A stretch of DNA of 53,174 nucleotides from positions 1 through 53,174 of the forward strand of contig QJVM01000236.1 of assembly GCA_003235715.1 (NCBI GenBank), given 5' to 3'. Shown here in pieces: positions 12,400-36,944 of this stretch. The notes below the pieces were generated by a model. It was not told where the DNA came from. It did no database searches and worked only from the letters and a program-made list of their open reading frames with translations. A program made the translations under genes and the position numbers. Each line of letters opens with the position of its first letter. The first letter of the stretch is position 1. The stretch comes from Nitrospirota bacterium (GTDB taxonomy: Bacteria; Nitrospirota; Thermodesulfovibrionia; SZUA-242).

Positions 12400-13192
12400 C
12401 TCGCGTCTTCTGAGTGTGCGTATGCGTGCCTCACGGGACGGACGTCACGTTTCCGGTGCGGAGGGTCTCTATTCGGAGCCGCTGGCGGTTCGCATGGTCG
12501 GGCGGTATGCGGAACGGGCCTTGACACACGGTTTGGGCCGGCCTGACGAGGTCGTGATTACCCTGGAAGCGCTGGAGGTCAAACCCGAAGAGATTCCCGC
12601 ACTCCGGGTAACCACCCTCCAGAACGAAGAGCCGCGTCGGGGCCGGCAGATGGCCGAACGTCTCCTGGCGGGTTGTGGCATCGGCACCCAGGGGATGAGA
12701 ACGGCATGGAACTTTATCGGGCGGCGCCATGGGTTGCGGGGCGGGATTCTTCTGGATACGGAAGGGGTACGGCTGGACCCGAACCTTGAACGCGGTGTCC
12801 GGGTGTCCCGGATGGGGATATCCAGACGTGCGGAAAGGGACCTTTCCAGGATGCTGGCGGCTTTCGATTGGGACCATCAAACCGTGCGAGAGGCCCTTGT
12901 TCTGGCCAGCAAGGTTCATGCTCACCCCAAGGTGGTGGCGGAACTGTGCGTATCTGACGACCCGGATTATACGACCGGGTATGTTGCATCGCGCCGTTTG
13001 GGCTACGTTCGCATTCCTCACCTCAAGAAGGAAGGAAGCCGGCGGGGAGGCCGGGCCTTCTTCATCGGGGTGACGGATGTGCCCGGCGTCCTGGAGTACC
13101 TTGAGCGCACACCCGTCATCGTGACGTCGCTGAAGGGATGTCTGGGCCTTTTGACCGAAGACGCGATTCCGGATCTCTTTACTGAAGGGTGA
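12389..13192 (+). CDS. bioW: 6-carboxyhexanoate--CoA ligase
   Basis: SVRMRAS..G.HVSGAEG, REALVLASKV, ELCVSDDPDYTTGYVA, GGRAFF. Confidence 0.92.
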   Translation: MSRNSRLLSVRMRASRDGRHVSGAEGLYSEPLAVRMVGRYAERALTHGLGRPDEVVITLEALEVKPEEIPALRVTTLQNEEPRRGRQMAERLLAGCGIGTQGMRTAWNFIGRRHGLRGGILLDTEGVRLDPNLERGVRVSRMGISRRAERDLSRMLAAFDWDHQTVREALVLASKVHAHPKVVAELCVSDDPDYTTGYVASRRLGYVRIPHLKKEGSRRGGRAFFIGVTDVPGVLEYLERTPVIVTSLKGCLGLLTEDAIPDLFTEG

Positions 13193-13362
13193 CCGGGTAG
13201 CAGGCCTCTTATGCTCGGCCTGTGGGGAAGATCGGATGGTCCCCATCCGCGTTCGGGCCAGCTATGGGAACCGGAACCGGAGTTTTGCTTTGCTCGAGGC
13301 GCTTCAGAGCCTCCCAAGGAAGAGGTGGATGCGCAGGCGTCCCGCACGGGTTGGAGGTTAGG

Positions 13363-14502
13363 TTGGATTTCGGGAAACGTCTTCAAGAGCTGGAGGAGCG
13401 CGGGCTTCGACGTGAGACCTGGCCTGTGGATTCCTGTCAGGGTGCGCTGATCTCCATTCAAGGTCGGCCCTTCATCAATTTTGCGTCAAACAATTATCTT
13501 GGTCTGGCACAGCGCGGGGAAGTCCGCGAGGCGGCAGAGCAGGCGATCCGAGATTTCGGGTGGGGTTCGGGGGCTTCGCGGCTGATGTCCGGCACGCACA
13601 GGCTGCACGAGGAACTCGAGGCCCGACTCGCAACCCTCAAGAGGACCGAGGCGGCGCTTCTGTTTCCCTCAGGCTATGCCGCGAACGTCGGCGCTTTGCC
13701 GGCGCTTTCGGACGAAAGGACGAGAATTCTGAGTGACGAACTCAACCACGCAAGCCTGATCGACGGGATACGCCTTGCCCGGGGGGAGGTCACGATATAC
13801 CCCCATGCGGATACGGAGGCTTTGGAAGCCGCGCTCGCGCAACAGGAGGATAAAGCCCTGGTGGTGAGCGACGGGGTTTTCAGTATGGATGGGGACGTGG
13901 CGCCGCTTCGCGAGATGGTCACCGCTGTGGAGCGGCAGGGCGGGGTTCTGTACTTGGATGATGCCCATGGAACCGGCGTACTCGGGACAGAAGGTCGGGG
14001 AACCTCGGAACATTTCGGGGTCAGTTCAGCATCGCTTCTCCAGATGGGAACCTTGTCCAAGGCTCTAGGAGGGATCGGAGGTTTCATAGCGGGTGACCGG
14101 GATGTTATAGCGTATCTGAGAAGCCGTGCCAGAAGCTTCATTTTCAGTACGGCCCTTCCGGCCCCTGCCTGCGCCGCAGGAATCGCGGCCCTAGAGATAC
14201 TGGAGCGGGAAGGGGGGCATCTGCGCGACAGACTGGACCGTCTTTGCCGTTACCTGGCCGTGGGCTTGGAGAGGCTGGGCCTCGTGGCGGACCCGATGAC
14301 GCCTATCTTTCCGGTTCATGCAGGCTCTGTGGAACGGTGCGTGCGGGTTTCGGCGGAACTGCGGAATCAGGGGATCTTCGGTCCCGCGATACGGCCCCCA
14401 ACGGTGCCTGCGGAGGCCTGCCGGATCCGAATCTCCCTTACGGCCGACCATGAGGCCTCACACGTGGACCGCCTTCTGGACGTCCTGGGAATGGTACTTT
14501 GA
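13363..14502 (+). CDS. bioF: 8-amino-7-oxononanoate synthase
   Basis: SNNYLGL, GSGASRL, SGYAAN, NHASLIDG, VFSMDGD, DDAHG, GTLSKA (PLP Lys), IRPPTVP; GGAGG RBS precedes TTG at 13363. Confidence 0.94.
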   Translation: MDFGKRLQELEERGLRRETWPVDSCQGALISIQGRPFINFASNNYLGLAQRGEVREAAEQAIRDFGWGSGASRLMSGTHRLHEELEARLATLKRTEAALLFPSGYAANVGALPALSDERTRILSDELNHASLIDGIRLARGEVTIYPHADTEALEAALAQQEDKALVVSDGVFSMDGDVAPLREMVTAVERQGGVLYLDDAHGTGVLGTEGRGTSEHFGVSSASLLQMGTLSKALGGIGGFIAGDRDVIAYLRSRARSFIFSTALPAPACAAGIAALEILEREGGHLRDRLDRLCRYLAVGLERLGLVADPMTPIFPVHAGSVERCVRVSAELRNQGIFGPAIRPPTVPAEACRIRISLTADHEASHVDRLLDVLGMVL

Positions 14503-15218
14503 ACGGCACTGCCCTGATTACCGGCGCAAGCGGAGGACTGGGCTCGGCCGTGGCATTGGAACTTGCGAGCAGAAAATACCGGTTGGCGGTTCACTACCAC
14601 ACGGGGCGAAACCGAATTGAGCAGGTGACTTCCAGACTTGAAGCGGAAACCCTCACCTGCCAGGCGGACCTGCAGGACAAGGCCTCCATTGAGGCGATGT
14701 TCTCCAAGGTGGCGGCGTGGGCGGCGGGACGACTGGACATGGTTGTCCACTGTGCCGGCGTGACGCGGGAGGCTTTGACGGCCAGGGTTTCAGATGCGGA
14801 ATTTGACCGGATTGTCGGGATCAATCTCCGGGGAGCCTTTGAAGTGGTCCGGCTTTCCGCCGCCATCATGGCACCACAGGGGAAGGGCCAGATCATACTG
14901 ATATCGTCGCGGGCTGCCCTAAAGGGAGGTGAGGGGCTCTCGGCCTATGGAGCGTCCAAGGCAGGGGTTTGTGGTCTGGGCCTGTCTGCGGCCCGGGAAC
15001 TTGGGGCCGCAGGGATTCGCGTGAACGTGGTTCTCCCCGGTTTTATTATGTCGGACATGGGAAAGTCCGCTTCTGAAGGTGCGAAAACCAAGGCCAGGAG
15101 GGAACACCTGCTGGAAAGGTTTGGGTCACCGGACGACGTGGCCTCCTTTATCGCGTGGCTCGCCGGGGCGGAGGCCGTGACGGGGCAGGTTTTCAACATC
15201 GATGGCCGACCGGTCTGA
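14499..15218 (+). CDS. FabG-like short-chain dehydrogenase/reductase
   Basis: TGASGGLG, YGASK, VTGQVFNIDG; overlaps both bioF and bioD. Confidence 0.88.
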   Translation: MNGTALITGASGGLGSAVALELASRKYRLAVHYHTGRNRIEQVTSRLEAETLTCQADLQDKASIEAMFSKVAAWAAGRLDMVVHCAGVTREALTARVSDAEFDRIVGINLRGAFEVVRLSAAIMAPQGKGQIILISSRAALKGGEGLSAYGASKAGVCGLGLSAARELGAAGIRVNVVLPGFIMSDMGKSASEGAKTKARREHLLERFGSPDDVASFIAWLAGAEAVTGQVFNIDGRPV

Positions 15219-15951
15219 AAGCAAGGGCGCAAGACCAGGCCGCGGGCTTTTCATTGCCGGCACGGATACCGGGGTCGGAAAAACCGTGGCGGCGGCCTCC
15301 ATCGCCCTGGGGCTTGAGTCTCTGGGGAGAGGTCCGGTTTGTGTCATGAAGCCCATCGAGACCGGCTGTCGGATGCGGGGAGGGCGACTTATCGCCAGCG
15401 ATGCGGAGTTTCACAGAAAAATGCTGGACTCATCTGAACCCGGGGAACTTCTCTGTCCGGTTAGGCTGCGGCCACCGGTTGCCCCGGTGACGGCGGCGAA
15501 GATGGAGAAACGACGTATCGGTCAGGAGGACTGGCGTCCCTCCTTCGACGCCCTGGTCGGTCGGCACGCCTTTGTGATCGTTGAAGGTGCGGGCGGAGTG
15601 ATGGTTCCCGTTCGGGAGGACTACCTGATTTCGGATATGATTTCCGAACTTGAAATCCCATGCGTAGTCGTGGCGAGAACTTCGCTGGGCACGATAAATC
15701 ATACGCTGCTCACGGTGGAACATCTTCTCACAAAAGGGATCCCCGTTTTGGGGTTGGTTTTCAACCGTACGGGTACGGCTACGAAGCCCGGGATTGCTGA
15801 ACGGACAGGCCCCGGACTGGTTTCAAGGATCGCACGGATTCCCGTTCTGGGGATTATCCCGGGGATGCCCTCTATTACGCGGAACGCCTTGCGGAGGACA
15901 GGGAAGCGTATTTCCGAGAACCTGATTTCCGTCCTGGAGGCCCCTCGGTGA
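15202..15951 (+). CDS. bioD: Dethiobiotin synthetase
   Basis: GTDTGVGKT, MKPIETG, VEGAGG, LGTINHT. Confidence 0.95.
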   Translation: MADRSESKGARPGRGLFIAGTDTGVGKTVAAASIALGLESLGRGPVCVMKPIETGCRMRGGRLIASDAEFHRKMLDSSEPGELLCPVRLRPPVAPVTAAKMEKRRIGQEDWRPSFDALVGRHAFVIVEGAGGVMVPVREDYLISDMISELEIPCVVVARTSLGTINHTLLTVEHLLTKGIPVLGLVFNRTGTATKPGIAERTGPGLVSRIARIPVLGIIPGMPSITRNALRRTGKRISENLISVLEAPR

Positions 15952-17516: not shown

Positions 17517-19715
17517 CTAAATCATCGGGTCCATGGAGAGCGCCGGATGCCCAACCGAACTCAAAAACTCGAGCAGTTTCTCGGAATCCTGCGCAATGGT
17601 TTCGTCCGCGATCTTGTCGAGAAGATCCGGCACACCTTCCTGTGCCGCTCTTTCTTCAAGTGCTTCCTTCAGGCTCTCCTTGAGCGCCTTGGTCATCCAA
17701 ACCACCCGTTTAAAGCCTCCGTCGCCAAACAGGAATTTCCTGCTCGTAATAAAGTTTCTGCCGATGCCCATGAATCCGGGAGTCTGCAGGCCTCCGCCGA
17801 CGGTGCCGGCAAGGGTGGAGAACTTCATGCCGATGGGTGTCATTTCCGCGTGCCCCCGGTTAACCAGCATGACTCCGTTGGCTTCCGGAAGGATGGCACA
17901 GATCACCTCAAAACATCCGCATGAAGTCATGGGATTGTCCATGATGGTGTAGGCGTTCATGGTGGCCACGGCCCCGCCGGTGGACTGGCTGAGGTAGTCA
18001 TCGACACCGCTCCAGCGTCCCTTCTGTGCATCAAGTACATCCCCCTTAACGATGGGCTGGTTGCCGCCCGTGGGGTCGATTTCGTACGCGGCCTTACCGT
18101 CCAGCCAGTTGTAAGCGCCGCAGAGACCGAGCCGCTCCGGCGTGATCACGCAGGCGTGGCTTGGCGCGAAAGACTGACAAAGCAGGCAGGAGTAAAAGGT
18201 ATCCACGGATTCATCGGTAAGGCTTCCCACGCGGGCATCCCTCTCCTTGTACGAGGCGCGAGCCTCCTCCTGTACGCGCGTCACATCCTCTTCATCCACG
18301 AACAGGGTGACCTGAACCTTGTCGACGATAGCCTTGAAACGGCTTCGGGTCATGGCGGTCTGAATAACTCCGAGGTGTTCCAGGGTGAAGCCGTCTTTCT
18401 TGGCATTGATGCTGATCCGGACCCAGTTGATGTCTCGCTGGCCCATATGCCATATGCCCTGGGCTTCATTGATGTTATGGTGGATCTTCCGTTCAATTAC
18501 GGATTCGAAGTCCTTCTGCATCTTGCGGCCGGCCACTTCGATGAGGATGCCCAGAGGCATCTTGCCCCCGGCCTCGAAACGCTTTTCCCAGTCCTTTCCC
18601 ACCACGATGACCTTGCCGTCCTCGATATCTTCGAGTTCCCTCATCCGGACCCATTCGAAAGCGGGCGTGCGCTGCCCGCCAAATTCGATAAACATGTCTT
18701 CCTTGCGGATGCGTTCGCCTTCAAAGGCCGGTCCGTAGGCCACCGGGATGGGCGGCTTCTCCACCGTGATCTTCAGGCCGCGGACCTCGATGCCCTTCTG
18801 GACAATCTTGTCGTGGTCGAATTCCTTGTCCACTTCTTCATACGTGCAGACGCCTGTCGGATGGATAACCGGAACGTCGGTATCGCAAACGGCAGGGAAG
18901 CCCATGTTGATGGCTCCGGCGCCGGTGGCCCATTTCATGTCGTCCATCGGACCCAGGGCCAGCGCGAAGGCAAACACCCGGTCCTTTTCATATTTCAAAA
19001 TGTTTCTGAAATCGCCCGGCTTCATCCCACCGAAGATCATGGCTGCGCGAACAGCCCAGTCCAGCGCGTACAGGGTGTGTTCGGTCAGGGGCCCGAGGGG
19101 AACAATACGCGTATCCCAACCCAGCTGGATCCCCCGCCGGAGAAGCTGTTTGGTTACGGATTCTCCGTTGGATTCTCCGGAAAGGAAGGTCAGGATGTTT
19201 TTCTCCTGAAGCTCCTTGACGATCTTCTCCGCAATCTCATCGGTCGGGGCCGCCCCAATGATGGCCGCGAAGCCGGGCATGGTCCCGTCCACGAGCTGGA
19301 TTCCAAGGTTGCGCTGGATGGTGTCGGTAATGTAACCGTTGTAGGTCAAATTGAGTTCAGGGTCGTGAACCGGTTCCTGCCCGGCGATATAACGAAGCGC
19401 CAGCCACACTTCCTGGGCAAACAGCGTAGCCATGCCGCCGTCCAGGGCCTCCCCCAGGTATGGAACCCAAAGCTGGTCGGCCGGTTCCTCGGAAAGGAGT
19501 TCCCGGGCGAAGCGAAGGCCTTCCCGCATCTGGCCCAGGGTCCGGATGTCGTACCCCGTCATCGCCTGGATCATCGGAAGACCGAAAGCCGTATCCGGGA
19601 ACTCGAATTTGAGATCCTCGCCCTTCTCGGCGATCGTATTCTCCAGAAGGTCCTCGGCGCGCTTGACCATTTCGTTGGACGCCCGGATGACGGCGGATGC
19701 AATGATTTTGGACAT
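17517..19715 (-). CDS. acsB: Acetyl-CoA synthase subunit of CODH/ACS (bacterial type)
   Basis: FPDTAF.LP, GPAFEGERIR, A-cluster ligands CLLCQSFAPSHAC...LCG and PMTSCGCFE, GGGLQTPGFMG; GGAGG RBS. Confidence 0.95.
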   Translation of the reverse strand: MSKIIASAVIRASNEMVKRAEDLLENTIAEKGEDLKFEFPDTAFGLPMIQAMTGYDIRTLGQMREGLRFARELLSEEPADQLWVPYLGEALDGGMATLFAQEVWLALRYIAGQEPVHDPELNLTYNGYITDTIQRNLGIQLVDGTMPGFAAIIGAAPTDEIAEKIVKELQEKNILTFLSGESNGESVTKQLLRRGIQLGWDTRIVPLGPLTEHTLYALDWAVRAAMIFGGMKPGDFRNILKYEKDRVFAFALALGPMDDMKWATGAGAINMGFPAVCDTDVPVIHPTGVCTYEEVDKEFDHDKIVQKGIEVRGLKITVEKPPIPVAYGPAFEGERIRKEDMFIEFGGQRTPAFEWVRMRELEDIEDGKVIVVGKDWEKRFEAGGKMPLGILIEVAGRKMQKDFESVIERKIHHNINEAQGIWHMGQRDINWVRISINAKKDGFTLEHLGVIQTAMTRSRFKAIVDKVQVTLFVDEEDVTRVQEEARASYKERDARVGSLTDESVDTFYSCLLCQSFAPSHACVITPERLGLCGAYNWLDGKAAYEIDPTGGNQPIVKGDVLDAQKGRWSGVDDYLSQSTGGAVATMNAYTIMDNPMTSCGCFEVICAILPEANGVMLVNRGHAEMTPIGMKFSTLAGTVGGGLQTPGFMGIGRNFITSRKFLFGDGGFKRVVWMTKALKESLKEALEERAAQEGVPDLLDKIADETIAQDSEKLLEFLSSVGHPALSMDPMI

Positions 19716-26044: not shown

Positions 26045-26289
26045 TGGTGGGGCAGGGTTTCCCAAAGGAAGGAGAGGGTTCAAATTCTCCGCGGCTGCGG
26101 GAAGATATCTGCTCCGGTTGTGTTTACGCATCGGAACAGATAGACCCTGAGGAGTTTGCGTCCGAAGGCGCGTGCGGTCTCGGTTGCACGCCGGGGGATG
26201 AACTCTGCGTGGAGATGAGAACGCGTGACTGCAGCCTGCGAAGGAAGCCTGTTGCGCCGTTAGGGCCCGGCAGGTGTTCCGGGCCCTGA
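26044..26289 (+). CDS. Small Cys-rich hypothetical protein (81 aa)
   Basis: ATG overlaps the leuD stop (TGATG); 7 Cys including CxxC and CxxxC; overlaps the convergent gene by 30 nt. Confidence 0.5.
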   Translation: MVGQGFPKEGEGSNSPRLREDICSGCVYASEQIDPEEFASEGACGLGCTPGDELCVEMRTRDCSLRRKPVAPLGPGRCSGP

Positions 26290-26820
26290 ATCGAACGATA
26301 CATCCGACCCGACAGCCTTTCCGTAACGGTCGGCCTCATCCAGCTTCCGGAGGGAGTCCAGTATGAGGTGGCCGCTGCCCAGCCGCACGGGGCCTCCCCG
26401 AATCAGGCCGGGAATGGGTCCCCCTACCATGAATCTTCCTTTTCCGGACCCGATGACACCGACGAGAATGGTTTCGGCCAGACCGGCCAGGCTGTTCGTG
26501 AGTGTTTCGAGCGTGGCCAGGCGGGAGTCAATCAGATACTGGGTGAAGCATACGCCAAGCTTGCGGCTCTCCAGGAGGGCCGTCTTCATGGCGCCAGCTT
26601 CAAGCTGTCCCACCCGGGTCAGGTATTCGCCGAATCGCTCCTGGGCATGGTCGGACGAACAGAAAATGATCTGGCCATTCTCGAAGTAGAAAGATCTTGT
26701 GGCCGATGCGTCGTCAATGCCGGTAACAGAGAGAATACAGGACTTGCGAACCTGTTCGATCCACTGGAGCAGGTCGGGCAAGGGCATGAACGTCAGGTCT
26801 CCTTCAAGGTAAATGTTCAT
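26260..26820 (-). CDS. DUF4388 domain protein
   Basis: LEGDL..MPLPDLLQW, YFENGQI, RFGEYL, ILDSLRKLDE. Confidence 0.8.
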   Translation of the reverse strand: MNIYLEGDLTFMPLPDLLQWIEQVRKSCILSVTGIDDASATRSFYFENGQIIFCSSDHAQERFGEYLTRVGQLEAGAMKTALLESRKLGVCFTQYLIDSRLATLETLTNSLAGLAETILVGVIGSGKGRFMVGGPIPGLIRGGPVRLGSGHLILDSLRKLDEADRYGKAVGSDVSFDSGPGTPAGP

Positions 26821-27168
26821 GTTTGGATACGGGAACTCGGCCTGGTCTTTAGAGGGCCATTTGCCGCTCCTCGCAGGAAGGACAATGGCCGGGGGTCGGC
26901 GTGGGGAGGGAAGCGCCTTCCTTTATGCCCTCTGTTCCGGACATTGGTCATGGACATGTAACCCGTTGCTTTCGCATAATAATAACCCGCCGAATAGGCA
27001 GGGGAAGGGGCAGGCTGGGGCCCTATTATACGGAATTGCCTCTCGGTCGTCGAATTCTGTTGTCATTCAGGGACGTGACTTGGAAGAATCCTCAATGACC
27101 GTACGGTTTCGACTGCGCGAGGGCTATCAAACGGACCTGATATTCCAGGGGCAAGGAGAAAGAGCGTA

Positions 27169-28482
27169 TTGAAGAGAAACATCGTAAACATCGGTATCGT
27201 GGGATTTGGTACGGTCGGGTCTGGGCTGGTCTCGATCCTTCTTGACCCGAAAAGCGAACTTTCGAAGAAGCTGGGTTTCGACCTTCGCATCAAACGGATT
27301 GCAGACAAGGACACTACACGGGACAGAGGCATCACGCTTCCTCCCGGGCTTCTGACCCATGACGTCTCAACCATCGTGGAGGACCCCGAGATCGACATTG
27401 TTGTCGAACTCGTGGGCGGGACAACGTTTGCCAAGGACATCATCCTGAAGGCGATCAAGGCCGGAAAGCAGGTCGTGACTGCCAATAAAGCGCTTCTGGC
27501 CCTGGAGGGCAATGAGGTCTTCGAGGCGGCCGGGAAGATGGGCGTGGACGTTGGGTTTGAGGCTTCAGTGGCGGGGGGGATTCCTATCATCAAAGTGATG
27601 AAGGAAGGGCTCGTGGCCAACCGGATTCAGTCCGTTTACGGGATTATCAACGGAACGGCGAATTTTATCCTCTCCAAAATGACGGAGGAAGGGGCCTCCT
27701 TCAACGATGTGCTGGCTGAAGCTCAGCGTTTGGGCTATGCCGAGGCCGACCCGACCTTTGATGTGGAGGGAGTGGACTCGGCCCACAAGTTGGCGATCCT
27801 GGCCAGTCTCGCCTTTGGGATCCCGCTTTCATACCATTCCCAGTACGTGGAAGGCATTTCGCGGATCACGCCGCTCGACATCGCGTTTGCTTCAGAGTTC
27901 GGATACAAGATCAAGTTGCTTGGAATAGCCAAGAGCGACGGTCATGAGGTCGAATTGCGCGTGCATCCGACGATGTTGCCCAGGGACCAGATGCTGGCCA
28001 AGGTCGACGGTGTGTTCAATGCCCTTTACATAGAGAGCGATGCGGTTGGCCCGACGATGTACTATGGTCGAGGGGCCGGGGCCCGACCGACGGGAAGCGC
28101 TGTTCTGGCGGACATCGTGGATATTGCCCGGAATCTGAGGCATGGCATCACCGCCCGCGTTCCCGCCTTCGGCCGACCGGCCAACGAGCCCTTTAAGGTT
28201 CGGAAGATGAGCGACGTTACCTCCTGTTACTATTTCAGGTTCTCGGTACACGATAAACCCGGGGTGTTGAGCAAGATATCGGGAGTCCTGGGCCAACACG
28301 ACATCAGTATTGAGTCCGTTATCCAGAAAGGCCGGAAGGAAGGCGGTTCGGTGCCTCTGGTGATCCTGACCCACGAGGCGGTCGAGCACAATGTGAAAAC
28401 GGCCCTTGAGGAGATCAGGAGATTGTCGGTGGTCGAGGCCGACGCCATGATGATTCGTGTGGAAGGAGCCAACGGGCGCTGA
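27169..28482 (+). CDS. hom: Homoserine dehydrogenase with C-terminal ACT domain
   Basis: GFGTVG, VTANK, FEASVAGGIP, GYAEADP, GRGAG, DKPGVL. Confidence 0.97.
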   Translation: MKRNIVNIGIVGFGTVGSGLVSILLDPKSELSKKLGFDLRIKRIADKDTTRDRGITLPPGLLTHDVSTIVEDPEIDIVVELVGGTTFAKDIILKAIKAGKQVVTANKALLALEGNEVFEAAGKMGVDVGFEASVAGGIPIIKVMKEGLVANRIQSVYGIINGTANFILSKMTEEGASFNDVLAEAQRLGYAEADPTFDVEGVDSAHKLAILASLAFGIPLSYHSQYVEGISRITPLDIAFASEFGYKIKLLGIAKSDGHEVELRVHPTMLPRDQMLAKVDGVFNALYIESDAVGPTMYYGRGAGARPTGSAVLADIVDIARNLRHGITARVPAFGRPANEPFKVRKMSDVTSCYYFRFSVHDKPGVLSKISGVLGQHDISIESVIQKGRKEGGSVPLVILTHEAVEHNVKTALEEIRRLSVVEADAMMIRVEGANGR

Positions 28483-28560
28483 CTGGAGAGGGTTCGGCGC
28501 GCGGAGTTTTCAGGGTTCCGGACCTGGGAGGAAGCGAAAACGGACGTCAGGGGAGAGACC

Positions 28561-28806
28561 ATGTCGGGCGTAAAGGTGGCAAAGAAGATCGATATCCGCG
28601 GGCTTGTGTGTCCGTATACGTTCGTAAAATCCAAACTGGCCATCGAGACCATGGAAGTCGGTGAGGTCCTGGAGATTCTTTTGGACTACGAGGAGGCCTT
28701 GAGCAGCATACCGAACTCCATGAGGGACCATGGTCACACCGTTCTGGAGGTGGATAAGGTGTCAGAGGGCCAGTGGATCATTCAGGTCAGGAAGGACAGG
28801 GACTGA
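28561..28806 (+). CDS. TusA/SirA-family sulfur relay protein
   Basis: DIRGLVCPY N-terminal motif, GEVLEIL, 81 aa. Confidence 0.88.
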   Translation: MSGVKVAKKIDIRGLVCPYTFVKSKLAIETMEVGEVLEILLDYEEALSSIPNSMRDHGHTVLEVDKVSEGQWIIQVRKDRD

Positions 28807-28807
28807 A

Positions 28808-29608
28808 GTGGATTTCAACGAGGAACAGCTGCTGCGGTACAGTCGCCACATCATTCTTCCGGAAGTCGGCGGTAAGGGCCAGTCCCGAATTCAAAAGGCG
28901 AGGGTCTTTATGGTGGGCGCGGGCGGGCTGGGAAGCCCGGTAGGATACTACCTTTCAGCAGCGGGCATCGGGACCCTGGGTATCGTGGATAATGACCGGG
29001 TCGAGATCAGCAATCTTCAGAGGCAGATTGCACACAGCATGAATACCCTCGGGAAATACAAGGGAGATTCAGCCAAAGCCACTTTCGAGGCACTGAATCC
29101 GGATGTTCGTGTCATCCCGATCAAGGAGCGACTGAGCAAGGACAATATTCTCGATCTGATTCACGATTACGACATTGTGGTTGACGGGAGCGATAATTTT
29201 CCGACCCGCTATCTGGTGAACGATGCCTGTGTTCTGACGGGCAAGCCCCTCGTCAGCGGGGCGATTCTCCGCTTCGAAGGACAGGTCACCACCATCGTCC
29301 CTGGAAAGGGACACTGTTACCGATGTCTCTTCGAGGAACCTCCCCCGCCGGGGCTCGTTCCCTCGTGTCAGGAAGCAGGCGTACTGGGGGCCCTGCCGGG
29401 GGTTATCGGAGGTCTCCAGGCCCTGGAGGTCCTCAAACTTGTTCTTGGCAAGGGTGAACCGCTGGCCGGGAAGCTGTTGATCTTCGACGCCCTGAAGACC
29501 ACGTTTCGTACGGTCCGGGTCCCTAGAAATCCAAACTGTCCGGTCTGCGGCTCCAACCCGACCATCACGGAACTCCAGGACTATTCGCAGGATGTCTGCA
29601 GCCTCTGA
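28808..29608 (+). CDS. MoeB/ThiF-family adenylyltransferase (E1-like) without a rhodanese domain
   Basis: RYSRHI, GAGGLG, SNLQRQ, DNFPTR, CYRC, PSCQEAG, CPVC; GTG start 1 nt after the TusA stop. Confidence 0.93.
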   Translation: MDFNEEQLLRYSRHIILPEVGGKGQSRIQKARVFMVGAGGLGSPVGYYLSAAGIGTLGIVDNDRVEISNLQRQIAHSMNTLGKYKGDSAKATFEALNPDVRVIPIKERLSKDNILDLIHDYDIVVDGSDNFPTRYLVNDACVLTGKPLVSGAILRFEGQVTTIVPGKGHCYRCLFEEPPPPGLVPSCQEAGVLGALPGVIGGLQALEVLKLVLGKGEPLAGKLLIFDALKTTFRTVRVPRNPNCPVCGSNPTITELQDYSQDVCSL

Positions 29609-30053
29609 AGGGGCCGATTCCTTTCTGGAAGAAGGCCGTCGCCGGAGGATTGTGCTTCGCACGGACCAGGCGGCGCGACTTCTCAAACTGGCCCTGAAGG
29701 GGCTGCCCAACGAGGTCTGTGGTTTCCTTGCCGGAGTCTCTGAAACTGTTGAAGAAATCATTCCGGTTACGAATGCAGAACCCTCACCGGTGTGTTATCT
29801 TATGCATTCAGCCGAGCAGTTTCGGGCCATGAAGATAATGAGGGACAAGGGCCTGGAAATGGTTGGAATCTACCACTCGCACCCGGTCAGTCCCGCGTAT
29901 CCCTCGGCCCGGGATGTAGAACGGGCCGCCTATCCGGATTGTGTTTATCTGATCATCGGGATTGGGCGCGATGGGACCGAAATAAGGGGTTTCCGCATCG
30001 AGGACCGAGCCGTTGCCGAGGTTGAGGTCGTGGTTCAGGACCCCGTGGAGTAA
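29592..30053 (+). CDS. JAB/MPN+ (M67, Mec-like) metallopeptidase
   Basis: PNEVCG...YHSHP...PS..D JAMM motif. Confidence 0.9.
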   Translation: MSAASEGADSFLEEGRRRRIVLRTDQAARLLKLALKGLPNEVCGFLAGVSETVEEIIPVTNAEPSPVCYLMHSAEQFRAMKIMRDKGLEMVGIYHSHPVSPAYPSARDVERAAYPDCVYLIIGIGRDGTEIRGFRIEDRAVAEVEVVVQDPVE

Positions 30054-30163
30054 GGATCCCCGGTTTGACCGTTGGCCGGAATCCCCGGGCGGGCGGCCGG
30101 TTCCTCCGGATTCGGGGAGATAATAGAGATTATAAAAGCGCTTCGGCGCTCGGGGAGACGGTT

Positions 30164-31405
30164 ATGGCTCACGTAAAGGGACTGCGGTGTCGGGAATGCT
30201 CGAGGGATTATCCCATTGAGCCCATCTACGTCTGCGAGTTCTGTTTTGGTCCGCTCGAGGTCGTCTACGACTACGAATCGATCCGCGGAGTGCTTACCCG
30301 TGATGAGATACGGTCACGTCCTCAGAACCTCTGGAGATACCGGGAGCTTCTGCCGGTCGAGGGCGAACCGGTAGTGGGCAAGCAGTCGGGGTTCACCCCT
30401 CTCATCAAGGCCGATCGACTGGCAAGGGCCATCGGGGTCGATGAACTCTATATCAAGGACGATACCGTAACGCACCCCACGCTGTCGTTCAAGGATCGGG
30501 TCGTTTCTGTGGCCTTGTCCAAAGCCTCAGAATTCGGCTTCGATACTGTGGCCTGCGCCTCCACCGGGAATCTGGCTCATGCCGTCGCGGCTCAGGGAGC
30601 GGCCGGTGGGTTCCGACGGTTCGTCTTCATCCCGGCGACACTCGAACGGAGCAAGATCGTGGCTTCGCTGGCCTACGAACCTAACGTCATGGCCGTGGAA
30701 GGCAATTACGACGATGTAAACCGGTTGTGCAGCGAGATTGCGAACAAGTACCGGTGGGCTTTTGTGAACATCAACATTCGGCCGTATTATGCGGAAGGAT
30801 CCAAAACCCAGGGGCATGAGATCTGCGAGCAACTGGGGTGGAAAGCTCCGGACCATGTGGTGGTTCCCTGTGCAAGCGGTTCCCTGCTCACCAAGATTTG
30901 GAAGAGTTTCGAGGAAATGCACAAACTGGACCTTATCCCTGAACTGAGGAGCAAGGTCTTTGCGGCACAGCCCACGGGTTGTTCCCCGATTTCTGTAGCG
31001 GTCAAGACACAAAGCGAGGTGATCCGTCCGGTCAAACCCGATACCATTGCCCGGTCGCTTGCGATTGGGAACCCGGCCGACGGCTATTATGCCTCGCGCG
31101 TCGTCCATAACACGGGAGGATGGGCAGAGGATGCCACAGACCAGGAGATCGTGGACGCCATGAAGCTTCTGGCGAGGACAGAGGGTATCTTTGCGGAGAC
31201 CGCGGGAGGGGTGACCCTGGCCTGCGCTATAAAGCTCCTTCAGTCCGGAAAGCTTCCTCGGGAAGGCTCCACGGTTTTGTGCATCACGGGGAACGGCATG
31301 AAGACGAAGGAGGCCCTTGACGGCCAGGTGGACAACCCGCACCGGATCAAACCCAACCTCGGGAGTTTCGAGGAGGTCTTGTCCCGGATCGGGGACCACG
31401 GCTGA
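30164..31405 (+). CDS. Threonine synthase-like PLP enzyme, candidate O-phosphohomoserine sulfhydrylase
   Basis: N-terminal CxxC..CxxC, PTLSFKDR (PLP Lys), ASTGN, NINIRPYYAEGSKT, ITGNGMKT. Confidence 0.88.
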   Translation: MAHVKGLRCRECSRDYPIEPIYVCEFCFGPLEVVYDYESIRGVLTRDEIRSRPQNLWRYRELLPVEGEPVVGKQSGFTPLIKADRLARAIGVDELYIKDDTVTHPTLSFKDRVVSVALSKASEFGFDTVACASTGNLAHAVAAQGAAGGFRRFVFIPATLERSKIVASLAYEPNVMAVEGNYDDVNRLCSEIANKYRWAFVNINIRPYYAEGSKTQGHEICEQLGWKAPDHVVVPCASGSLLTKIWKSFEEMHKLDLIPELRSKVFAAQPTGCSPISVAVKTQSEVIRPVKPDTIARSLAIGNPADGYYASRVVHNTGGWAEDATDQEIVDAMKLLARTEGIFAETAGGVTLACAIKLLQSGKLPREGSTVLCITGNGMKTKEALDGQVDNPHRIKPNLGSFEEVLSRIGDHG

Positions 31406-31478
31406 GGACGGGTTCCAAGAGGACTTCATAAATAGAGAGACGGTCAGGTTCAATCTGGCTGGGAAGGAGGAAACAACT

Positions 31479-31751
31479 ATGGCGGTTACGATTCGGATTC
31501 CGACCCCTCTTCAGAGGGTGACTCAGGGCAAGGAAGTCGTCGAGGGAACTCCCGGGACGGTCATCAACCTGGTGAACGAGCTCGACAAGGCTTACCCTGG
31601 GCTGGCAGAACGCATTTCGGAGAACGGAAAGATCAGGCGTTTCGTAAATATATACGTCAATGAGGAAGACATACGGTTCCTTGACGCGGAGAATACCGGG
31701 GTCAAGGACGGAGACGAGGTTTCGATTGTACCGGCCATTGCGGGAGGGTAA
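31479..31751 (+). CDS. MoaD/ThiS/CysO-like ubiquitin-fold sulfur carrier
   Basis: IRIPTPL, FVNIYVNEEDIRFL, ends in PAIAGG; strong RBS. Confidence 0.93.
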   Translation: MAVTIRIPTPLQRVTQGKEVVEGTPGTVINLVNELDKAYPGLAERISENGKIRRFVNIYVNEEDIRFLDAENTGVKDGDEVSIVPAIAGG

Positions 31752-31891
31752 TCCCTCCGGGGGCTAGCCGTCTCCACCGGGGTGGGGAAGACGGTCCGTC
31801 GGTCCGGGTTGGACGCAGTACGGTCTTGGCCGCCGCGGGGCAATCGTACAGCCGGGCCTATCCCAAAATCTATGCGGGCAGGAGGTCTTCA

Positions 31892-32128
31892 ATGAAACGG
31901 AGGGTTAAATTGACCTTTCCCCAGGTTCTGATCAAGGAGCCGGTCATCTTCACCATGGCCAAGAAACACAACGTCATGCCCAATATTCGTCGGGCGCGCG
32001 TGACCGAAAGCGTGGGGGAAATGATTCTGGAGATCGAAGGTGACGAGGCCGACGTTTCGGCGGCCATCAGTGACCTGAGGAGCCAGGGGATCGACGTGGA
32101 ACTGGTGGAGGGTGACGTTCTGGAATAG
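31892..32128 (+). CDS. Stand-alone NIL domain protein
   Basis: LTFP...EPVI......NIRRA.V....GEMILE..G; GGAGG RBS before ATG 31892. Confidence 0.82.
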   Translation: MKRRVKLTFPQVLIKEPVIFTMAKKHNVMPNIRRARVTESVGEMILEIEGDEADVSAAISDLRSQGIDVELVEGDVLE

Positions 32129-32224
32129 CCGCGTTCCCGGGAACGTCTTGTTCCCGCCGCAGGTCTGCGCCTTGTCGGTACCGGCGGTTCCGGCCGGATA
32201 CCTTGACGTGTCAGGTGTGAATTC

Positions 32225-33439
32225 ATGAAATTTGCCATATTGCTTGGAGACGGGATGGCCGACCGGCCACTGGCGCAGTTGGGGGGGAAGACCTGCCTCC
32301 AGACGGCACACACGCCGGTTATGGACCGGCTCGCGTCCTGCTCGAGGGTGGGCCGTGTCAGGACGGTTCCCGTGGGGATGCCGGCAGGGTCGGACGTGGC
32401 CAATCTATCCATATTCGGATACGACCCGAAAATCTGTTACACCGGCCGGGCACCCCTTGAGGCCGCAAGCATGGGCGTTCATCTGGAGCCCGAGGATGTG
32501 GCCTTTCGCTGCAATCTTGTAAGCGTATCAGGGCCGCTGACAGAAGCGGATTCCCGGATGCTCGATTACAGCGGAGGGCATATCACGACGGACGAGGCCC
32601 GACCCGTGATCGAGACCGTAAACAAGGCGTTGGGTACAGAACTTCTCCGGTTCCACCCCGGGGTCAGTTACCGTCATCTTATGGTCTGGAAGAAGGGGTC
32701 CGACGGGGTTCAGACCACGCCGCCCCATGATATTCTGGGCCAGAAGCTCCATGCCCATCTTCCGCGCGGGTCAGGCGAGGACACGCTCGTCAGGCTGATG
32801 AATGATTCGCAGGACATTCTTATGTCCCATCCCGTCGTGGAGGCTCGTCTTGAGAGGGGTCTCGGGGGGCCCAACAGCATCTGGTTTTGGGGCCAGGGGC
32901 GACGTCCTGAAATGCCCGGCTTTCTCCAAAAATACGGAAAGAGTGGCGCGATTATTTCTGCCGTGGACCTTACCAAAGGCATTGGCGTGTTCGCCGGATT
33001 CGAGGTGATTAACGTCCCCGGGGCCACGGGATATCTGGACACGAACTATGCCGGGAAGGCTTCGGCCGCCCTTGAGGCGCTCGACCGTCACGACCTGGTC
33101 TATGTTCACGTGGAGGCCCCGGATGAGGCCGGCCACAACGGAAAGGTGGAGGACAAGATCCGGGCCATTGAGGATTTCGACGCCAAGATCGTGGGCCCTA
33201 TTGTCGAGGGAATGTCCGTCTTCGGGGATTATCGGGTGCTGGTTCTGCCCGACCATCCAACACCCCTTGAGATCCGCACCCACAGCGCTGAGCCGGTTCC
33301 CTTTATCCTGCACCAGAGGGGAGATGACCGTAGCGTGAGGCGGGGCTTCGACGAAACGATTACCGGGCAACCCGAACTTGATTTCGAGGAAGGCCACCGG
33401 CTGATGGGGTTCTTCCTTGGTGTGGAGCAGGCTCCCTGA
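32225..33439 (+). CDS. apgM: ApgM-type cofactor-independent phosphoglycerate mutase family (proposed homoserine kinase subfamily)
   Basis: GDGMAD, GSDVAN, GRAPLEA, VEAPDEAGH, PDHPTP...TH; flanked by thrC-like and ask genes. Confidence 0.88.
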   Translation: MKFAILLGDGMADRPLAQLGGKTCLQTAHTPVMDRLASCSRVGRVRTVPVGMPAGSDVANLSIFGYDPKICYTGRAPLEAASMGVHLEPEDVAFRCNLVSVSGPLTEADSRMLDYSGGHITTDEARPVIETVNKALGTELLRFHPGVSYRHLMVWKKGSDGVQTTPPHDILGQKLHAHLPRGSGEDTLVRLMNDSQDILMSHPVVEARLERGLGGPNSIWFWGQGRRPEMPGFLQKYGKSGAIISAVDLTKGIGVFAGFEVINVPGATGYLDTNYAGKASAALEALDRHDLVYVHVEAPDEAGHNGKVEDKIRAIEDFDAKIVGPIVEGMSVFGDYRVLVLPDHPTPLEIRTHSAEPVPFILHQRGDDRSVRRGFDETITGQPELDFEEGHRLMGFFLGVEQAP

Positions 33440-33520
33440 ATTAGAATAAGGACGGTCCGGTTCGTCACAGGAAAGACCGATCAGCCCGGAACAGACAGGC
33501 AAAGGAGCGGGAGGAAACAG

Positions 33521-34795
33521 GTGCTTATCGTCCAGAAGTATGGAGGCACATCGGTAGGCAATATCGACCGGATCAAGAATGTGGCCCGGCGTGCGGTCCG
33601 GTCCCGAAAGCAGGGCAACCGGGTGGTCGTGGTGGTCTCGGCCATGTCCGGCGAAACAGACAAGCTGATCGGTTTGGCCAAGCAGGTCTCCGATTCCCCG
33701 GAGGAGCGGGAAATGGACATGCTCATGTCCAGCGGGGAACGGATAAGCAGCGCCCTTACGGCCTTGGCCATTGAGGCCCTTGGCGTAAAATCCATGAGCC
33801 TGACAGGCCGCCAGGCGGGTATCTCGACGGATGCTGCCCATACGAAGGCTCGAATCACGGGCATAGCCGGCGACCGCATACTCGAGGCACTGAACCAGGG
33901 CTATATCCCGGTCATTGCCGGATTTCAGGGCATGGGGCCCGGAAGCGATGTAACCACCCTCGGTCGCGGAGGGTCCGACACTTCGGCCGTGGCCATCGCG
34001 GCGGCCATCCGTGCGGATCTTTGCGAAATCTACACGGATGTGGACGGGGTCTACACCACGGATCCCAACATGGTGCCAAAGGCCAGGAAACTGGACCGAA
34101 TTTCCTACGATGAAATGCTCGAAATGGCCAGTCTCGGAGCCAAGGTTCTTCAGACGCGGTCTGTGGAGTTTGCCAAGAACTACAACGTTCCCGTGCTGGT
34201 GCTTTCGAGTTTCAACGACAACCCCGGCACGCTGGTGACCAAGGAGGACGAACAGATGGAAAAGGTGGTCGTGGCCGGCATCGCCTACGACAAGAATCAG
34301 AGCAAGATCACGGTCGTCAATGTTCCGGACAGGCCCGGCATTGCAGCGGAAATGTTCCGCGGGCTCGCCAAGGCCAACATCAACGTGGACATGATCGTGC
34401 AGAACATTTCGAGCGACGGCAGGTTTGCCGACATTTCCTTCACCGTCCCGAAGACCGATTCGGACAAGGCCACGCGGACCACCGAGAAGATTGCGGGCAA
34501 ACTCGGGGCGAAGGGAGTGGATCGGCGGGACGATATCGCCAAGGTGTCCATCGTGGGGGTGGGCATGCGCTCCCATTCGGGCGTGGCGTCCAAGATGTTT
34601 GACACTCTGGCCGCCCACGGTATCAACATCCTCATGATCAGCACCTCTGAGATCAAGGTGTCATGCGTGATCGAAAACATGTATACGGAACTGGCCGTAC
34701 GGGTGCTTCACGATGCCTTTGAACTCGAGAAGCCGATGGGGCAAGAGGCTCCTCCGGCCAAGTCGAAAACACGGTCAGGCCGGAAGAAGGCCTGA
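33521..34795 (+). CDS. lysC: Aspartate kinase
   Basis: [24 protein letters not shown], two ACT domains, STSEIK. Confidence 0.96.
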
Positions 34796-34835: not shown

Positions 34836-36422
34836 ATGAAGAGGCTCATTGAAATATACGATACGACGCTCCGGGACGGTTCGCAGGCCGAAGGGGTTTC
34901 CTTCTCCGTGGAGGACAAGCTCCGGATCACGGATAAGCTCGACGAACTGGGGGTGCACTTTATTGAAGGGGGTTGGCCCGGGTCGAACCCGAAGGACGTT
35001 GAGTATTTTGAGAAGGCTCGCAAGCTGAATCTCCGGTACGCGAGGGTGGCCGCGTTCGGGAGCACGCATCACCCCAAATACAAGCCCGCGGAGGATCCTA
35101 ACCTCAAGGCGCTGGTGGCGGCCGAGACCCCGGTCATCACCATCTTTGGGAAGACCTGGGACCTGCACGTTCGGGAGGCCCTGGGAATCTCGGGCGGTAA
35201 GAATCTGCAACTCATCAAGAACTCGGTTCGCCACCTGAAGAAACACGCCCAGTTGGTGTTCTTCGACGCGGAGCACTTCTTTGACGGGTACAAGTCTGAC
35301 CCGGACTACGCGGTCAAGTGCCTTGTCAGTGCCCAGGAAGGAGGGGCCGATGGCGTGATCCTCTGCGATACCAACGGCGGAACGCTGACGGGAGAACTCT
35401 CGCGTATCGTGGCCAAGGTCCTCGAGGCGGTGGACGCGCCGGTGGGCATCCACGCGCATAACGATTCCGAAGTGGCGGTGGCCAACTCGCTTGCGGCCGT
35501 GGAACTGGGTGCCGGACAGGTCCAGGGCACCATAAACGGACTGGGTGAGCGATGCGGCAACGCGAACCTTTGTTCCATTATTCCGGCCCTGCGTTTCAAG
35601 CTGGGAATGGATTGTCTTTCGGACGAACAGATGAAGAGGCTCAGGGACGCGTCACGGTTCGTTTCCGAGATTGGCAATCTTCGGCATTGGCGGAGGCTCC
35701 CCTACGTCGGGGACAGTGCCTTTGCCCATAAGGGCGGCATTCACGTGAGCGCCGTTCAGAAGAACCCGCTGACTTATGAACATATTCGTCCGGAACTGGT
35801 GGGAAATTCCCAGAGGGTCCTGGTCTCTGACCTCGCAGGTCGGAGCAACGTTCTGAGAAAGGCCCGGGAGTCCGGAATCAAGCTGACGGAGGATGCGCCG
35901 GAACTCCGGGAGATCATCCAAAGACTCAAAAGCCTCGAGAAACAGGGGTACGAGTTCGAGGGAGCCGAAGCCTCCTTCGAGATTCTGATGAAAAAGGCCC
36001 TGGGTCTGCACCGGACGTTCTTCGAACTCATCGGGTTCCGAGTCATCGTTGAGAAACGTCGCGAAGGGGAAAACCCGATCAGCGAGGCGACCATCATGGT
36101 CCGGGTCAGTAACCACATCGAGCACACGGCCGCCACGGGCAGCGGGCCTGTAAACGCCCTGGACAATGCCCTGCGAAAGGCCCTGGAGAAATTCTACCCG
36201 CAGTTGAAGCAGGTTTCGCTGATCGACTACAAGGTCCGGGTGCTTTCCGCGGCCGAAGGGACCGCCGCGAATGTCCGTGTGCTCGTTGAATCCGGAGACG
36301 GGCACCAAAAATGGGGGACCGTCGGGGTTTCAGAAAACATCATCGAGGCCTCATGGCAGGCCCTCGTGGACAGTATCGATTACAAGCTTCTCAGGGACGA
36401 AGGAGCGGTGGCCTTGGCGTAA
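34836..36422 (+). CDS. cimA: Citramalate synthase
   Basis: [56 protein letters not shown]. Confidence 0.92.
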
Positions 36423-36512
36423 GACCATACCAGAGGAGGTGTTCCCTACAGGCCCAGGGTTTCGGCCTCCCGGGAGGACGCCCGAGGGGAAAAGGAGCAG
36501 AGGAAGACAGGG

Positions 36513-36944
36513 ATGGCTTTGGAGGAAGAGGGCATTGTCGTTGAGGTCAGGGACGACCGGGCTGTGGTGGCGGTCACGGGCGGGAGTGCCTGCGACAAGT
36601 GTCCTTCGGCATCGCTCTGTAAGGGCGACGGGGAACAGAAGACGCTCACCGCCGTAAACCCGTTCAATGCAAAGGCCGGAGACAGGGTCCGGGTCGTAAT
36701 GCATTCGCAGATGTACCTGAAGGGCACGATGCTCGTCTACGGCATCCCCATGGTTCTGTTCATTGGGGGAGCCATGCTCGGGAAATTCATGGCCGACCAT
36801 TATTTCCCTGACTGGAACGCGGATTTGACCGCCGCAGGCGTTGGAACCCTTTTGCTTGTGCTTTCGTTCGGGGCGGCGAAAGTCTGGAGCCGGAAGGTGG
36901 AGGGCAATGAAGCCTATCTTCCGGTCATTGAAAAGATTCTCTGA
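36513..36944 (+). CDS. RseC/MucC-family membrane protein
   Basis: EEEGIV, SACDKC....C, A..GD.V, VYGIP, two C-terminal TM segments. Confidence 0.82.
   Translation: MALEEEGIVVEVRDDRAVVAVTGGSACDKCPSASLCKGDGEQKTLTAVNPFNAKAGDRVRVVMHSQMYLKGTMLVYGIPMVLFIGGAMLGKFMADHYFPDWNADLTAAGVGTLLLVLSFGAAKVWSRKVEGNEAYLPVIEKIL

Follow-up and report, generated by a model that had tools for sequence, protein, structure and literature searches.

Here, we describe a nine-gene cluster in a stretch of 53,174 nucleotides (the window, contig QJVM01000236.1) from a Nitrospirota bacterium of the class Thermodesulfovibrionia. In the draft genome (3.24 Mb in 271 contigs, 95.8% complete), the window is contig C205, and its best protein matches bear the names Nitrospirota, Thermodesulfovibrionales, or Candidatus Sulfobium. 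The nine genes, all on the plus strand, fill positions 27169 to 34795 in the order hom, TusA, MoeB, JAB, a gene related to threonine synthase (ThrC-like), a sulfur carrier gene, NIL, HomK, and ask; Pfam, NCBIfam, and the translations place each of them where an earlier reading of the bare letters (the original prediction) had put nine co-oriented genes. On comparative sequence grounds, the cluster is quite probably an aspartate-pathway operon with a protein-thiocarboxylate-dependent homocysteine synthase of the MetM/MetO type.

The first gene, hom (27169–28482), encodes a homoserine dehydrogenase with a C-terminal ACT domain (Pfam Homoserine_dh, NAD_binding_3, and ACT; NCBIfam PRK06349, 563 bits). 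It is followed by a TusA/SirA-family sulfur-transfer protein of 81 residues (28561–28806; full PF01206 model, 77 bits) with its cysteine in the motif RGLVCPY, and by a MoeB/ThiF-type E1 adenylyltransferase at about 28808–29608, whose start was inferred by alignment with relatives within a reading frame that opens at 28730. The JAB/JAMM metallopeptidase (29592–30053) is Mec/HcyD-like, scores 83.5 bits to Prok-JAB, and shows H-x-H-x7-S-x2-D in its translation. The MetM-like enzyme (30164–31405) is a ThrC-family, pyridoxal phosphate (PLP)-dependent protein of 413 residues (PALP, TIGR00260) with an N-terminal Cys4 ribbon; its ATG lies at 30164 in an open reading frame (ORF) that opens at 30065. 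The MetO-like carrier (31479–31751) is a ThiS/MoaD-family protein of 90 residues (PF02597, 57 bits) that ends in PAIAGG directly before the stop codon, and a stand-alone NIL-domain protein of 78 residues comes next (31892–32128; PF09383, 64 bits). HomK (32225–33439), an ApgM-family homoserine phosphotransferase, scores 531.2 bits to TIGR02535 ("proposed homoserine kinase") against a cut-off of 446.3, and ask (33521–34795) encodes an aspartate kinase with two ACT domains (AA_kinase and ACT; NCBIfam PRK06635, 625 bits). None of the 51 window ORFs scanned carries a moa, thi, cysM, metX, metA, or metY domain, and the absence of these genes had been correctly predicted.

Public annotation names the ThrC-like enzyme "threonine synthase," and it does score 258.8 bits to TIGR00260 (thrC) against a cut-off of 167.1. 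The enzyme could accordingly be read as a real threonine synthase or threonine deaminase, with the carrier, E1, and JAB serving some other sulfur transfer; we consider this very unlikely for the following reasons. Orthologues are found in 48 of 61 Nitrospirota genomes at 57 to 80% identity, and paralogues at 31 to 39%; the latter fall into two kinds, short ThrCs (about 355 residues) and long ThrCs (about 449 residues). In a quick IQ-TREE tree of 60 rows, 40 ThrC-like rows fall on one side of a branch with an SH-aLRT (Shimodaira–Hasegawa-like approximate likelihood ratio test) support of 98; seven long ThrCs are grouped (SH-aLRT 100) with 12 short ThrCs beside them. One long-branch row in this tree, L026_shortThrC, a PALP protein of 23% identity, is best ignored. 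When 98 ThrC-like, 38 short, and 7 long sequences were compared, 33 positions were fixed in the ThrC-like group and unlike both ThrC groups. Several of these positions fall in motifs adjoining the PLP lysine: the clade has SFKDRVV in place of SFKDRGM and STGNLA in place of STGNTS, N204/R206/Y209 stand where ThrCs have S/N/R, and A237/G239/S240/L241 where they have G/A-or-L/G/N. At least 97% of the 98 MetM-like rows thus carry SFKDRVV, STGNLA, N..R..Y, and A.GSL instead of the ThrC motifs SFKDRGM, STGNTS, S..N..R, and G.AGN, which we take to contact the substrate phosphate and PLP. By its separate clade and altered motifs, the enzyme is distinct from ordinary ThrC. Its nearest solved structures are ordinary ThrCs (6cgq, 2zsj, and 1uim), and no MetM structure was present among the solved structures searched.

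The gene order of close relatives bears on the same question. In two same-class relatives (loci L019 and L020), the order is hom-TusA-MoeB-JAB-[ThrC-like]-carrier-NIL-thrC-HomK-ask, i.e., the operon itself contains a true, short thrC immediately behind NIL, so that two paralogues coexist on one substrate pool. The in-operon thrC is missing in the window and in loci L023 and L024, with the order otherwise kept; its absence here, together with a cyanobacterial MetM homologue beside a MetO-like gene that acted as threonine synthase and deaminase in vitro and did not raise methionine (PMC12172450), is what the threonine synthase or deaminase reading can draw upon. Against it, besides the clade, the motifs, and the relatives' own thrC, stand S-adenosylmethionine (SAM) riboswitches 5' of orthologues and a plant-type threonine synthase elsewhere in this genome, on contig C18, both of which are described below. 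Separately, in five of six genomes of one family (G001, G020, G029, G038, and G046), the match to the MetM-like protein holds one in-frame TAG or TAA, which probably lies near the gene end.

The linkage of the cluster was examined in 18 loci sampled from the phylum and in the 80 best loci of one genome-contig scan, and neighbors were counted where a locus was flanked at each end by no less than 3 kb. Three sets were kept apart: loci sampled from the phylum (18), Nitrospirota-like records (30), and other phyla (16). The carrier is beside the ThrC-like gene in 18/18, 30/30, and 16/16 of these, respectively, and NIL in 18/18, 30/30, and 14/16; pooled, the carrier follows the ThrC-like gene in all 64 and NIL is present in 62. 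The remaining partners are less constant, with MoeB in 15/18, 16/30, and 12/16, JAB in 12/18, 12/30, and 9/16, and TusA in 6/18, 14/30, and 8/16. The ThrC-like/carrier/NIL triad is thus complete in all 18 loci sampled across the phylum, and the full order hom-TusA-MoeB-JAB-ThrC-like-carrier-NIL-HomK-ask-cimA-EF-G recurs in L023 and L024. Because the triad and the full order recur in relatives, the arrangement exceeds chance. MoeB is 57 to 82% identical in relatives, and hom, at the head of the same cluster, 55 to 73%. The scan records with titles outside Nitrospirota were named Omnitrophota, Elusimicrobiota, Margulisiibacteriota, Saganbacteria, Planctomycetia, Mariprofundaceae, Methylomirabilota/NC10, Rokuibacteriota, Nitrospinota, Desulfuromonadales, and Poribacteria; no Streptomyces record was found among the 80 best loci.

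Three observations on gene order stand apart from these counts. In other Nitrospirota families (L026–L034), two MoeB paralogues, 56 to 64% identical to that of the window, lie on either side of the core (MoeB, ThrC-like, carrier, NIL, MoeB, JAB). Genes inserted in the L021 and L035 operons were considered as methionine-related and rejected, being unrelated to methionine synthesis. The 1.1-kb gap between HomK and ask in the complete relative genome of L019 (13663–14746) holds no ORF of at least 80 residues.

Outside Thermodesulfovibrionia, a same-strand SAM-I riboswitch (Rfam) precedes the ThrC-like gene in 10 of 33 loci, i.e., 8 of 17 in one scan and 2 of 16 in a second scan from which L095 was left out. 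All ten riboswitch-preceded proteins nest inside the ThrC-like clade of the tree, and the orthologous group therefore belongs to the methionine regulon. The distribution of alternative homocysteine routes points in the same direction. The DUF39/HcyBio route occurs in 7 of the 61 genomes, all of one family, and all 7 are among the 13 genomes that lack a MetM-like gene, such that the MetM-like and DUF39 distributions are nearly complementary; relatives are not independent, and the distribution should be read as a pattern across families rather than as a statistical test. Five more of the 13 carry a pair consisting of a long ThrC and a cystathionine gamma-synthase (CGS)-family gene. MetX was found in 1 and MetA in 0 of the 61 genomes, and enzymes of the Cys_Met_Meta_PP family in 19. 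In the seven other same-class genomes, where the MetM-like cluster is present, no Cys_Met_Meta_PP enzyme, DUF39, MetX, or MetA was found.

The regulatory and distribution data also bear on the product. The module could make cysteine or another thiol amino acid instead of homocysteine, e.g., from O-phosphoserine as CysO/CysM/Mec does; the carrier, E1, and JAB architecture is common to the CysO system, O-phosphoserine is a possible substrate of ThrC relatives, and the genome has a cysteate-synthase-like ThrC paralogue. We regard this as very unlikely: the genome has its own CysK/CysM-family enzyme on contig C48, the cluster lies between hom and HomK, the makers of O-phosphohomoserine, the riboswitches of orthologues sense SAM, and the distribution is complementary to that of a homocysteine route. 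The paralogue itself, a third ThrC-family gene on contig C161 (locus L003, 1378–2637, minus strand), scores 464 bits to cysteate synthase TIGR03844 against a cut-off of 324.9, and a gene of this kind is unexpected outside a coenzyme M or sulfonolipid context.

The carrier falls below the NCBIfam cut-offs of the SAMP1, MoaD_arch, and Urm1-like models (MoaD_arch, 41.1 versus 49.5 bits), and its PAIAGG motif is kept unchanged in all 22 relatives aligned. Among 92 carrier C-termini, 17 end in GG followed directly by the stop codon, the window carrier included; 46 have one to three extra residues, 18 have 4 to 20, 9 have more than 20, and 2 lack the locating motif. It follows that most relatives need a peptidase to uncover the Gly-Gly end; the earlier suggestion that JAB is not needed for maturation in the window holds, and the role left to it here would be the release of homocysteine from a carrier adduct, by analogy with Mec and HcyD. 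In 8 of the 92 loci (L044, L093, L094, L095, L096, L098, L099, and L103), the carrier continues in frame past Gly-Gly into NIL (in L096 the frame runs off the locus; in L094 and L098 it has 171 residues), and in two loci (L079 and L112) it runs in frame into MoeB. The nearest solved chains of JAB are 2kks and JAMM1 5lda.

Two further statements about the sulfur relay proved correct, namely that MoeB has no rhodanese domain and that TusA lies directly upstream of it. MoeB holds a ThiF domain alone and matches the rhodanese-bearing models PRK08762, PRK07411, and PRK07878 over the E1 part only. A replacement of the missing rhodanese by TusA has been predicted in the literature (Iyer et al. 2006, row 4e; PMC1779556). 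As for other uses of the carrier, MoaE was found neither in this genome nor in five of seven same-class relatives that keep the cluster; contig C46 carries ThiS next to ThiG, and contig C41 a second ThiF. Since MoaE is missing from the genome and ThiS stands beside ThiG on C46, the carrier, as judged from gene content, is not a molybdenum cofactor or thiamine carrier. The carrier, E1, and JAB could also form a SAMP-type ubiquitin-like conjugation system that modifies aspartate-pathway enzymes, and the nearest named NCBIfam families of the three are indeed SAMP1, a SAMP-activating E1, and desampylase. All of these scores lie below the family cut-offs, though, and the tight, phylum-crossing linkage to a PLP enzyme and TusA and the SAM riboswitch control of orthologues fit a biosynthetic role, which makes such a conjugation system extremely improbable.

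NIL belongs to the conserved core, and the original prediction had assigned it a regulatory role. A profile of 23 NIL partners matches, among solved structures, only MetN C2 domains (seven distinct sequences, E ≤5e-4). Residue N31 of the window NIL is invariant in 23 of 23 partners and aligns with residue 295 of chain 3dhw_C, i.e., MetN N295; in MetN, the N295A substitution lowers L-methionine binding to undetectable levels (PMC6233128), and the NIL domain of the DUF39-route enzyme is described in a 2025 paper as binding methionine and regulating activity (PMC12068725). The invariant MetN-type asparagine and methionine binding by NIL elsewhere make a methionine-sensing role plausible, and the protein is probably a methionine-binding regulator. 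The carrier–NIL and carrier–MoeB fusions suggest that it works with the carrier or the E1. A complex prediction of the MetM-like enzyme with NIL (alignments A2 and A3) returned scores of 0.51, 0.14, and 0.13 against a mark of 0.32 and is silent on binding. In a literature search largely outside subscription journals, we found no paper that links NIL to a ThrC-like or MetM system, and none that links TusA to thiocarboxylate-dependent homocysteine synthesis.

Taken together, we propose the following mechanism. By family assignment, Ask and Hom would lead to homoserine, and the ApgM-type HomK would convert it to O-phosphohomoserine; HomK adjoins thrC and hom in relatives, its family replaces ThrB elsewhere, and members of the TIGR02535/BT2402 family rescue an Escherichia coli thrB mutant (GapMind 2026, PMC13759103). 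The rhodanese-less MoeB would adenylate the exposed Gly-Gly end of the MetO-like carrier, and sulfur from a TusA persulfide, or directly from sulfide, would turn it into a thiocarboxylate, both steps being modeled on Wolinella HcyS/HcyF and Streptomyces MetO/MoeZ. The MetM-like enzyme would then swap the phosphate of O-phosphohomoserine for the carrier sulfur, and JAB would free homocysteine from the resulting adduct as Mec and HcyD do; in most relatives, it would also trim the residues past GG. Finally, and as the weakest step of the scheme, the NIL protein of 78 residues is a probable methionine binder that would damp the system. The core of this mechanism, a carrier thiocarboxylate used by a ThrC-like enzyme on O-phosphohomoserine to give homocysteine, had been anticipated in the original prediction and is supported by the clade, linkage, riboswitch, and distribution data, all of which are comparative.

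Several observations weigh against the proposed homocysteine synthase, in addition to the in vitro activities of the cyanobacterial homologue. Rfam scans gave no riboswitch in the window, no methionine-rich leader frame was found in the intergenic gaps, and no SAM-I riboswitch was found in 26 genomes of the class. The likeness to the Streptomyces albulus system is one of architecture, as drawn from published descriptions. The genome is a draft, and at 95.8% completeness its absences fall short of proof. Two further points, a second candidate route to homocysteine and the missing methionine synthase, deserve a fuller account.

Contig C18 (30586–33091; locus L007 8575–11125, minus strand) holds a 449-residue threonine synthase adjoining a CGS-family gene. 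The long ThrC scores 560.9 bits to Arabidopsis threonine synthase 1 (1e5x) versus about 199 bits to bacterial ThrCs, and the best solved relative of the CGS-family protein is tobacco cystathionine gamma-synthase (1i41/1qgn, 342.7 bits). Plant cystathionine gamma-synthase uses O-phosphohomoserine. The two genes are adjacent in all seven genomes with a long ThrC, and the pair is 80 to 84% identical across them. For five of these seven, which lack MetM-like, MetX, MetA, and DUF39, the pair is the only candidate homocysteine route found, which suggests that the pathway in these bacteria branches at O-phosphohomoserine as it does in plants. Contamination was considered for C18 and rejected on composition (GC content 58.9% versus 58.0 ± 1.2%; tetranucleotide distance at the 25th percentile). 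The pair is therefore the other candidate homocysteine route of this genome by sequence: its plant-like matches, adjacency, and identity indicate that threonine is probably made here by the C18 plant-type threonine synthase and that a second route from O-phosphohomoserine to homocysteine may be present. Of the rival genes for which the original prediction had proposed a check of the genome, no MetX or MetA and no ThrB above cut-off were found, but other candidates are present, since C18 holds a second ThrC and a CGS-family gene.

It is conceivable, therefore, that homocysteine comes mainly from the CGS-like C18 enzyme, acting on O-phosphohomoserine with cysteine or sulfide, and that the carrier route is redundant or conditional. 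The intact pair, the genome-typical composition of its contig, the plant-type matches, and the five genomes that lack MetM-like, MetX, MetA, and DUF39 favor this possibility, which we nevertheless judge unlikely. The MetM-like cluster is intact here and 80% identical to that of a same-family genome without the CGS-family gene; the substrate of the C18 enzyme is a prediction, with its scores below every NCBIfam equivalog cut-off; and only a single Cys_Met_Meta_PP enzyme is present, so that a cystathionine route would need an extra beta-lyase, for which no search was made. The two possibilities are compatible, the difference being one of physiological weight.

The second point concerns the enzyme that would take homocysteine on to methionine. 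The homocysteine-binding domain of MetH (PF02574) was found in none of the eight class genomes, this one included, and MetE (PF01717) in only one of the eight and not in this genome; both findings count on the opposing side. MetH is present in 41 of the 53 phylum-set genomes outside the class. When two MetE proteins of relatives were compared with the genome by tblastn, the matches were at chance level and the two best ORFs were not MetE-like. PF01717 also misses the MesC-only control Methanosarcina, and thus a MesB- or MesC-type enzyme may be present; a corrinoid-dependent MesB-type enzyme is our candidate for the methionine synthase of the class, given the acsB gene in the window. Combining these pieces, we tentatively put forward a wider scheme, whose parts may well not all hold together: NIL would be an integral third component of a widespread TusA/MoeB/JAB/MetM/MetO module; in some lineages it would be made as a carrier–NIL precursor that JAB cuts after Gly-Gly, as ubiquitin precursors are cut; free NIL would sense methionine via its MetN-type asparagine and throttle the charging or use of the carrier; and in Thermodesulfovibrionia the module would supply a methionine synthase other than MetH or MetE.

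Some evidence on expression is available. One metatranscriptome library contains contigs of at least 95% identity at 30536–30736, 30845–31528, 33162–33365, 26992–27150, and 36406–36582, and that at 30845–31528 bridges the end of the MetM-like gene into the start of the carrier gene. The library may contain DNA and a contig is no transcript; the contigs on the MetM-like gene are a weak hint of expression, and stretches without contigs are no evidence of silence. Promoter and terminator scans gave counts of 7 versus 4.1 ± 2.1 and 17 versus 13.4 ± 3.7 in shuffles, respectively, not clearly higher, so that no operon boundary is supported by them. Around the cluster, ilvC, psd, pssA, and leuACD lie on the 5' side and cimA and EF-G on the 3' side. 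The 1.1-kb gap between leuD and hom (26045–27168) holds only ORFs without family match; two promoter-like sites are seen in it, at 26951–26980 and 27060–27089, along with the RNA-library contig at 26992–27150. Elsewhere in the window, a gene for the acetyl-CoA synthase beta subunit AcsB/CdhC (17517–19715, minus strand) adjoins ilvC, away from other Wood–Ljungdahl genes, and a biotin cluster (11449–15951, plus strand) encodes a BioB-like protein, BioW, a class I/II aminotransferase, a short-chain dehydrogenase, and a BioD-like AAA_26 protein.

The bacteria concerned are sediment sulfur cyclers, and with an enzyme annotated as "threonine synthase," metabolic reconstructions would wrongly score them as methionine auxotrophs. 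With 48 of the 61 sampled genomes, MetM/MetO is the most widespread candidate homocysteine route in Nitrospirota; it recurs in records titled as at least 10 other lineages and travels with a fixed helper set, i.e., TusA, a rhodanese-less E1, JAB, and NIL. The known chemistry is unchanged by our findings, and the NIL partner and the carrier fusions offer a concrete hypothesis of feedback control that is open to laboratory testing.

Comparison with known systems places the cluster as follows. Closest in design is the experimentally supported MetM/MetO/Mec/MoeZ system of Streptomyces albulus, which converts O-phosphohomoserine to homocysteine (Hasebe 2024, cited in GapMind 2026, PMC13759103). It had been mentioned in the original prediction and is real, as Table 2 of PMC13759103 and PMC12172450 both attest; the carrier-to-ThrC-like route was first published in 2024 (Hasebe 2024, cited in PMC13759103). 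MetM (A0A059WBP2; MetO is A0A059W7F4) is said there to be "often misannotated" as threonine synthase (GapMind 2026, PMC13759103), and a SAM riboswitch upstream of metM is stated in PMC12172450. Both systems combine a PLP enzyme homologous to ThrC with a ThiS/MoaD-type carrier encoded next to it, an E1, a JAB hydrolase, and O-phosphohomoserine as (here proposed) substrate, and SAM-riboswitch control is likewise shared, on our side in orthologous loci of other lineages. They differ in that the Streptomyces E1 is of the MoeZ type with a rhodanese domain, whereas that of the window is ThiF-only with TusA beside it; in that the window carrier already ends in GG and the window has no riboswitch; and in that O-phosphohomoserine comes from ThrB in Streptomyces and would come from an ApgM-type HomK here. 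NIL in the conserved core is a feature of the window and its relatives.

The biochemistry of HcyS/HcyF/HcyD/MetY in Wolinella succinogenes was reportedly worked out by Krishnamoorthy and Begley in 2011. That system shares with the window a carrier, JAB, a rhodanese-less E1, SirA/TusA, and homocysteine as the product. It belongs to class 4e of Iyer, Burroughs, and Aravind 2006, i.e., a ThiS/MoaD protein, JAB, and an E1 that "always lacks" rhodanese, with SirA as the predicted replacement and Wolinella included (PMC1779556). The Wolinella PLP enzyme, however, is an O-acetylhomoserine sulfhydrylase of fold type I that clusters with sulfate-assimilation genes, while the PLP enzyme of the window is of the ThrC family and fold type II and is proposed to act on O-phosphohomoserine; neither an O-acetylhomoserine sulfhydrylase nor sulfate-assimilation genes were found among the window ORFs. 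The CysO/CysM/Mec/MoeZ system of Mycobacterium tuberculosis makes cysteine from O-phosphoserine, and its E1 has a rhodanese domain. It is alike in its logic, with a thiocarboxylate on the carrier, a PLP enzyme whose substrate is a phosphorylated hydroxy-amino acid, and hydrolysis by JAB, and unlike in its CysM-family enzyme and its cysteine product; such neighborhoods are classes 4c and 4d of PMC1779556. In the DUF39 route, DUF39 (COG1900) together with a NIL-ferredoxin forms an L-aspartate-semialdehyde sulfurtransferase (PMC5764234, PMC12068725). This is likewise a non-canonical homocysteine route that carries a NIL domain, found in the family without a MetM-like gene, but its catalytic proteins are unrelated, its substrate is aspartate semialdehyde, and no carrier protein takes part.

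Dissulfurispira thermophila, too, belongs to Thermodesulfovibrionia. Table 4 of GapMind 2026 lists a diverged Mec (A0A7G1H0A1) of the prototroph D. thermophila T55J (PMC13759103), i.e., JAB/Mec of a cultured prototroph is already counted in the MetM route; the main-text passages of that paper on this organism hold no discussion of NIL, TusA, or the HomK supply. In view of this entry and of the inclusion of the pathway in GapMind 2026 (PMC13759103), the initial claim that a self-contained version of the system with TusA, NIL, and ApgM is not biochemically described was overstated. The stand-alone NIL partner is the sole element that we did not find in print, and the cluster is a further example of the known MetM/MetO route, with the pairing of TusA and a rhodanese-less E1 already predicted in 2006, rather than an undescribed system.

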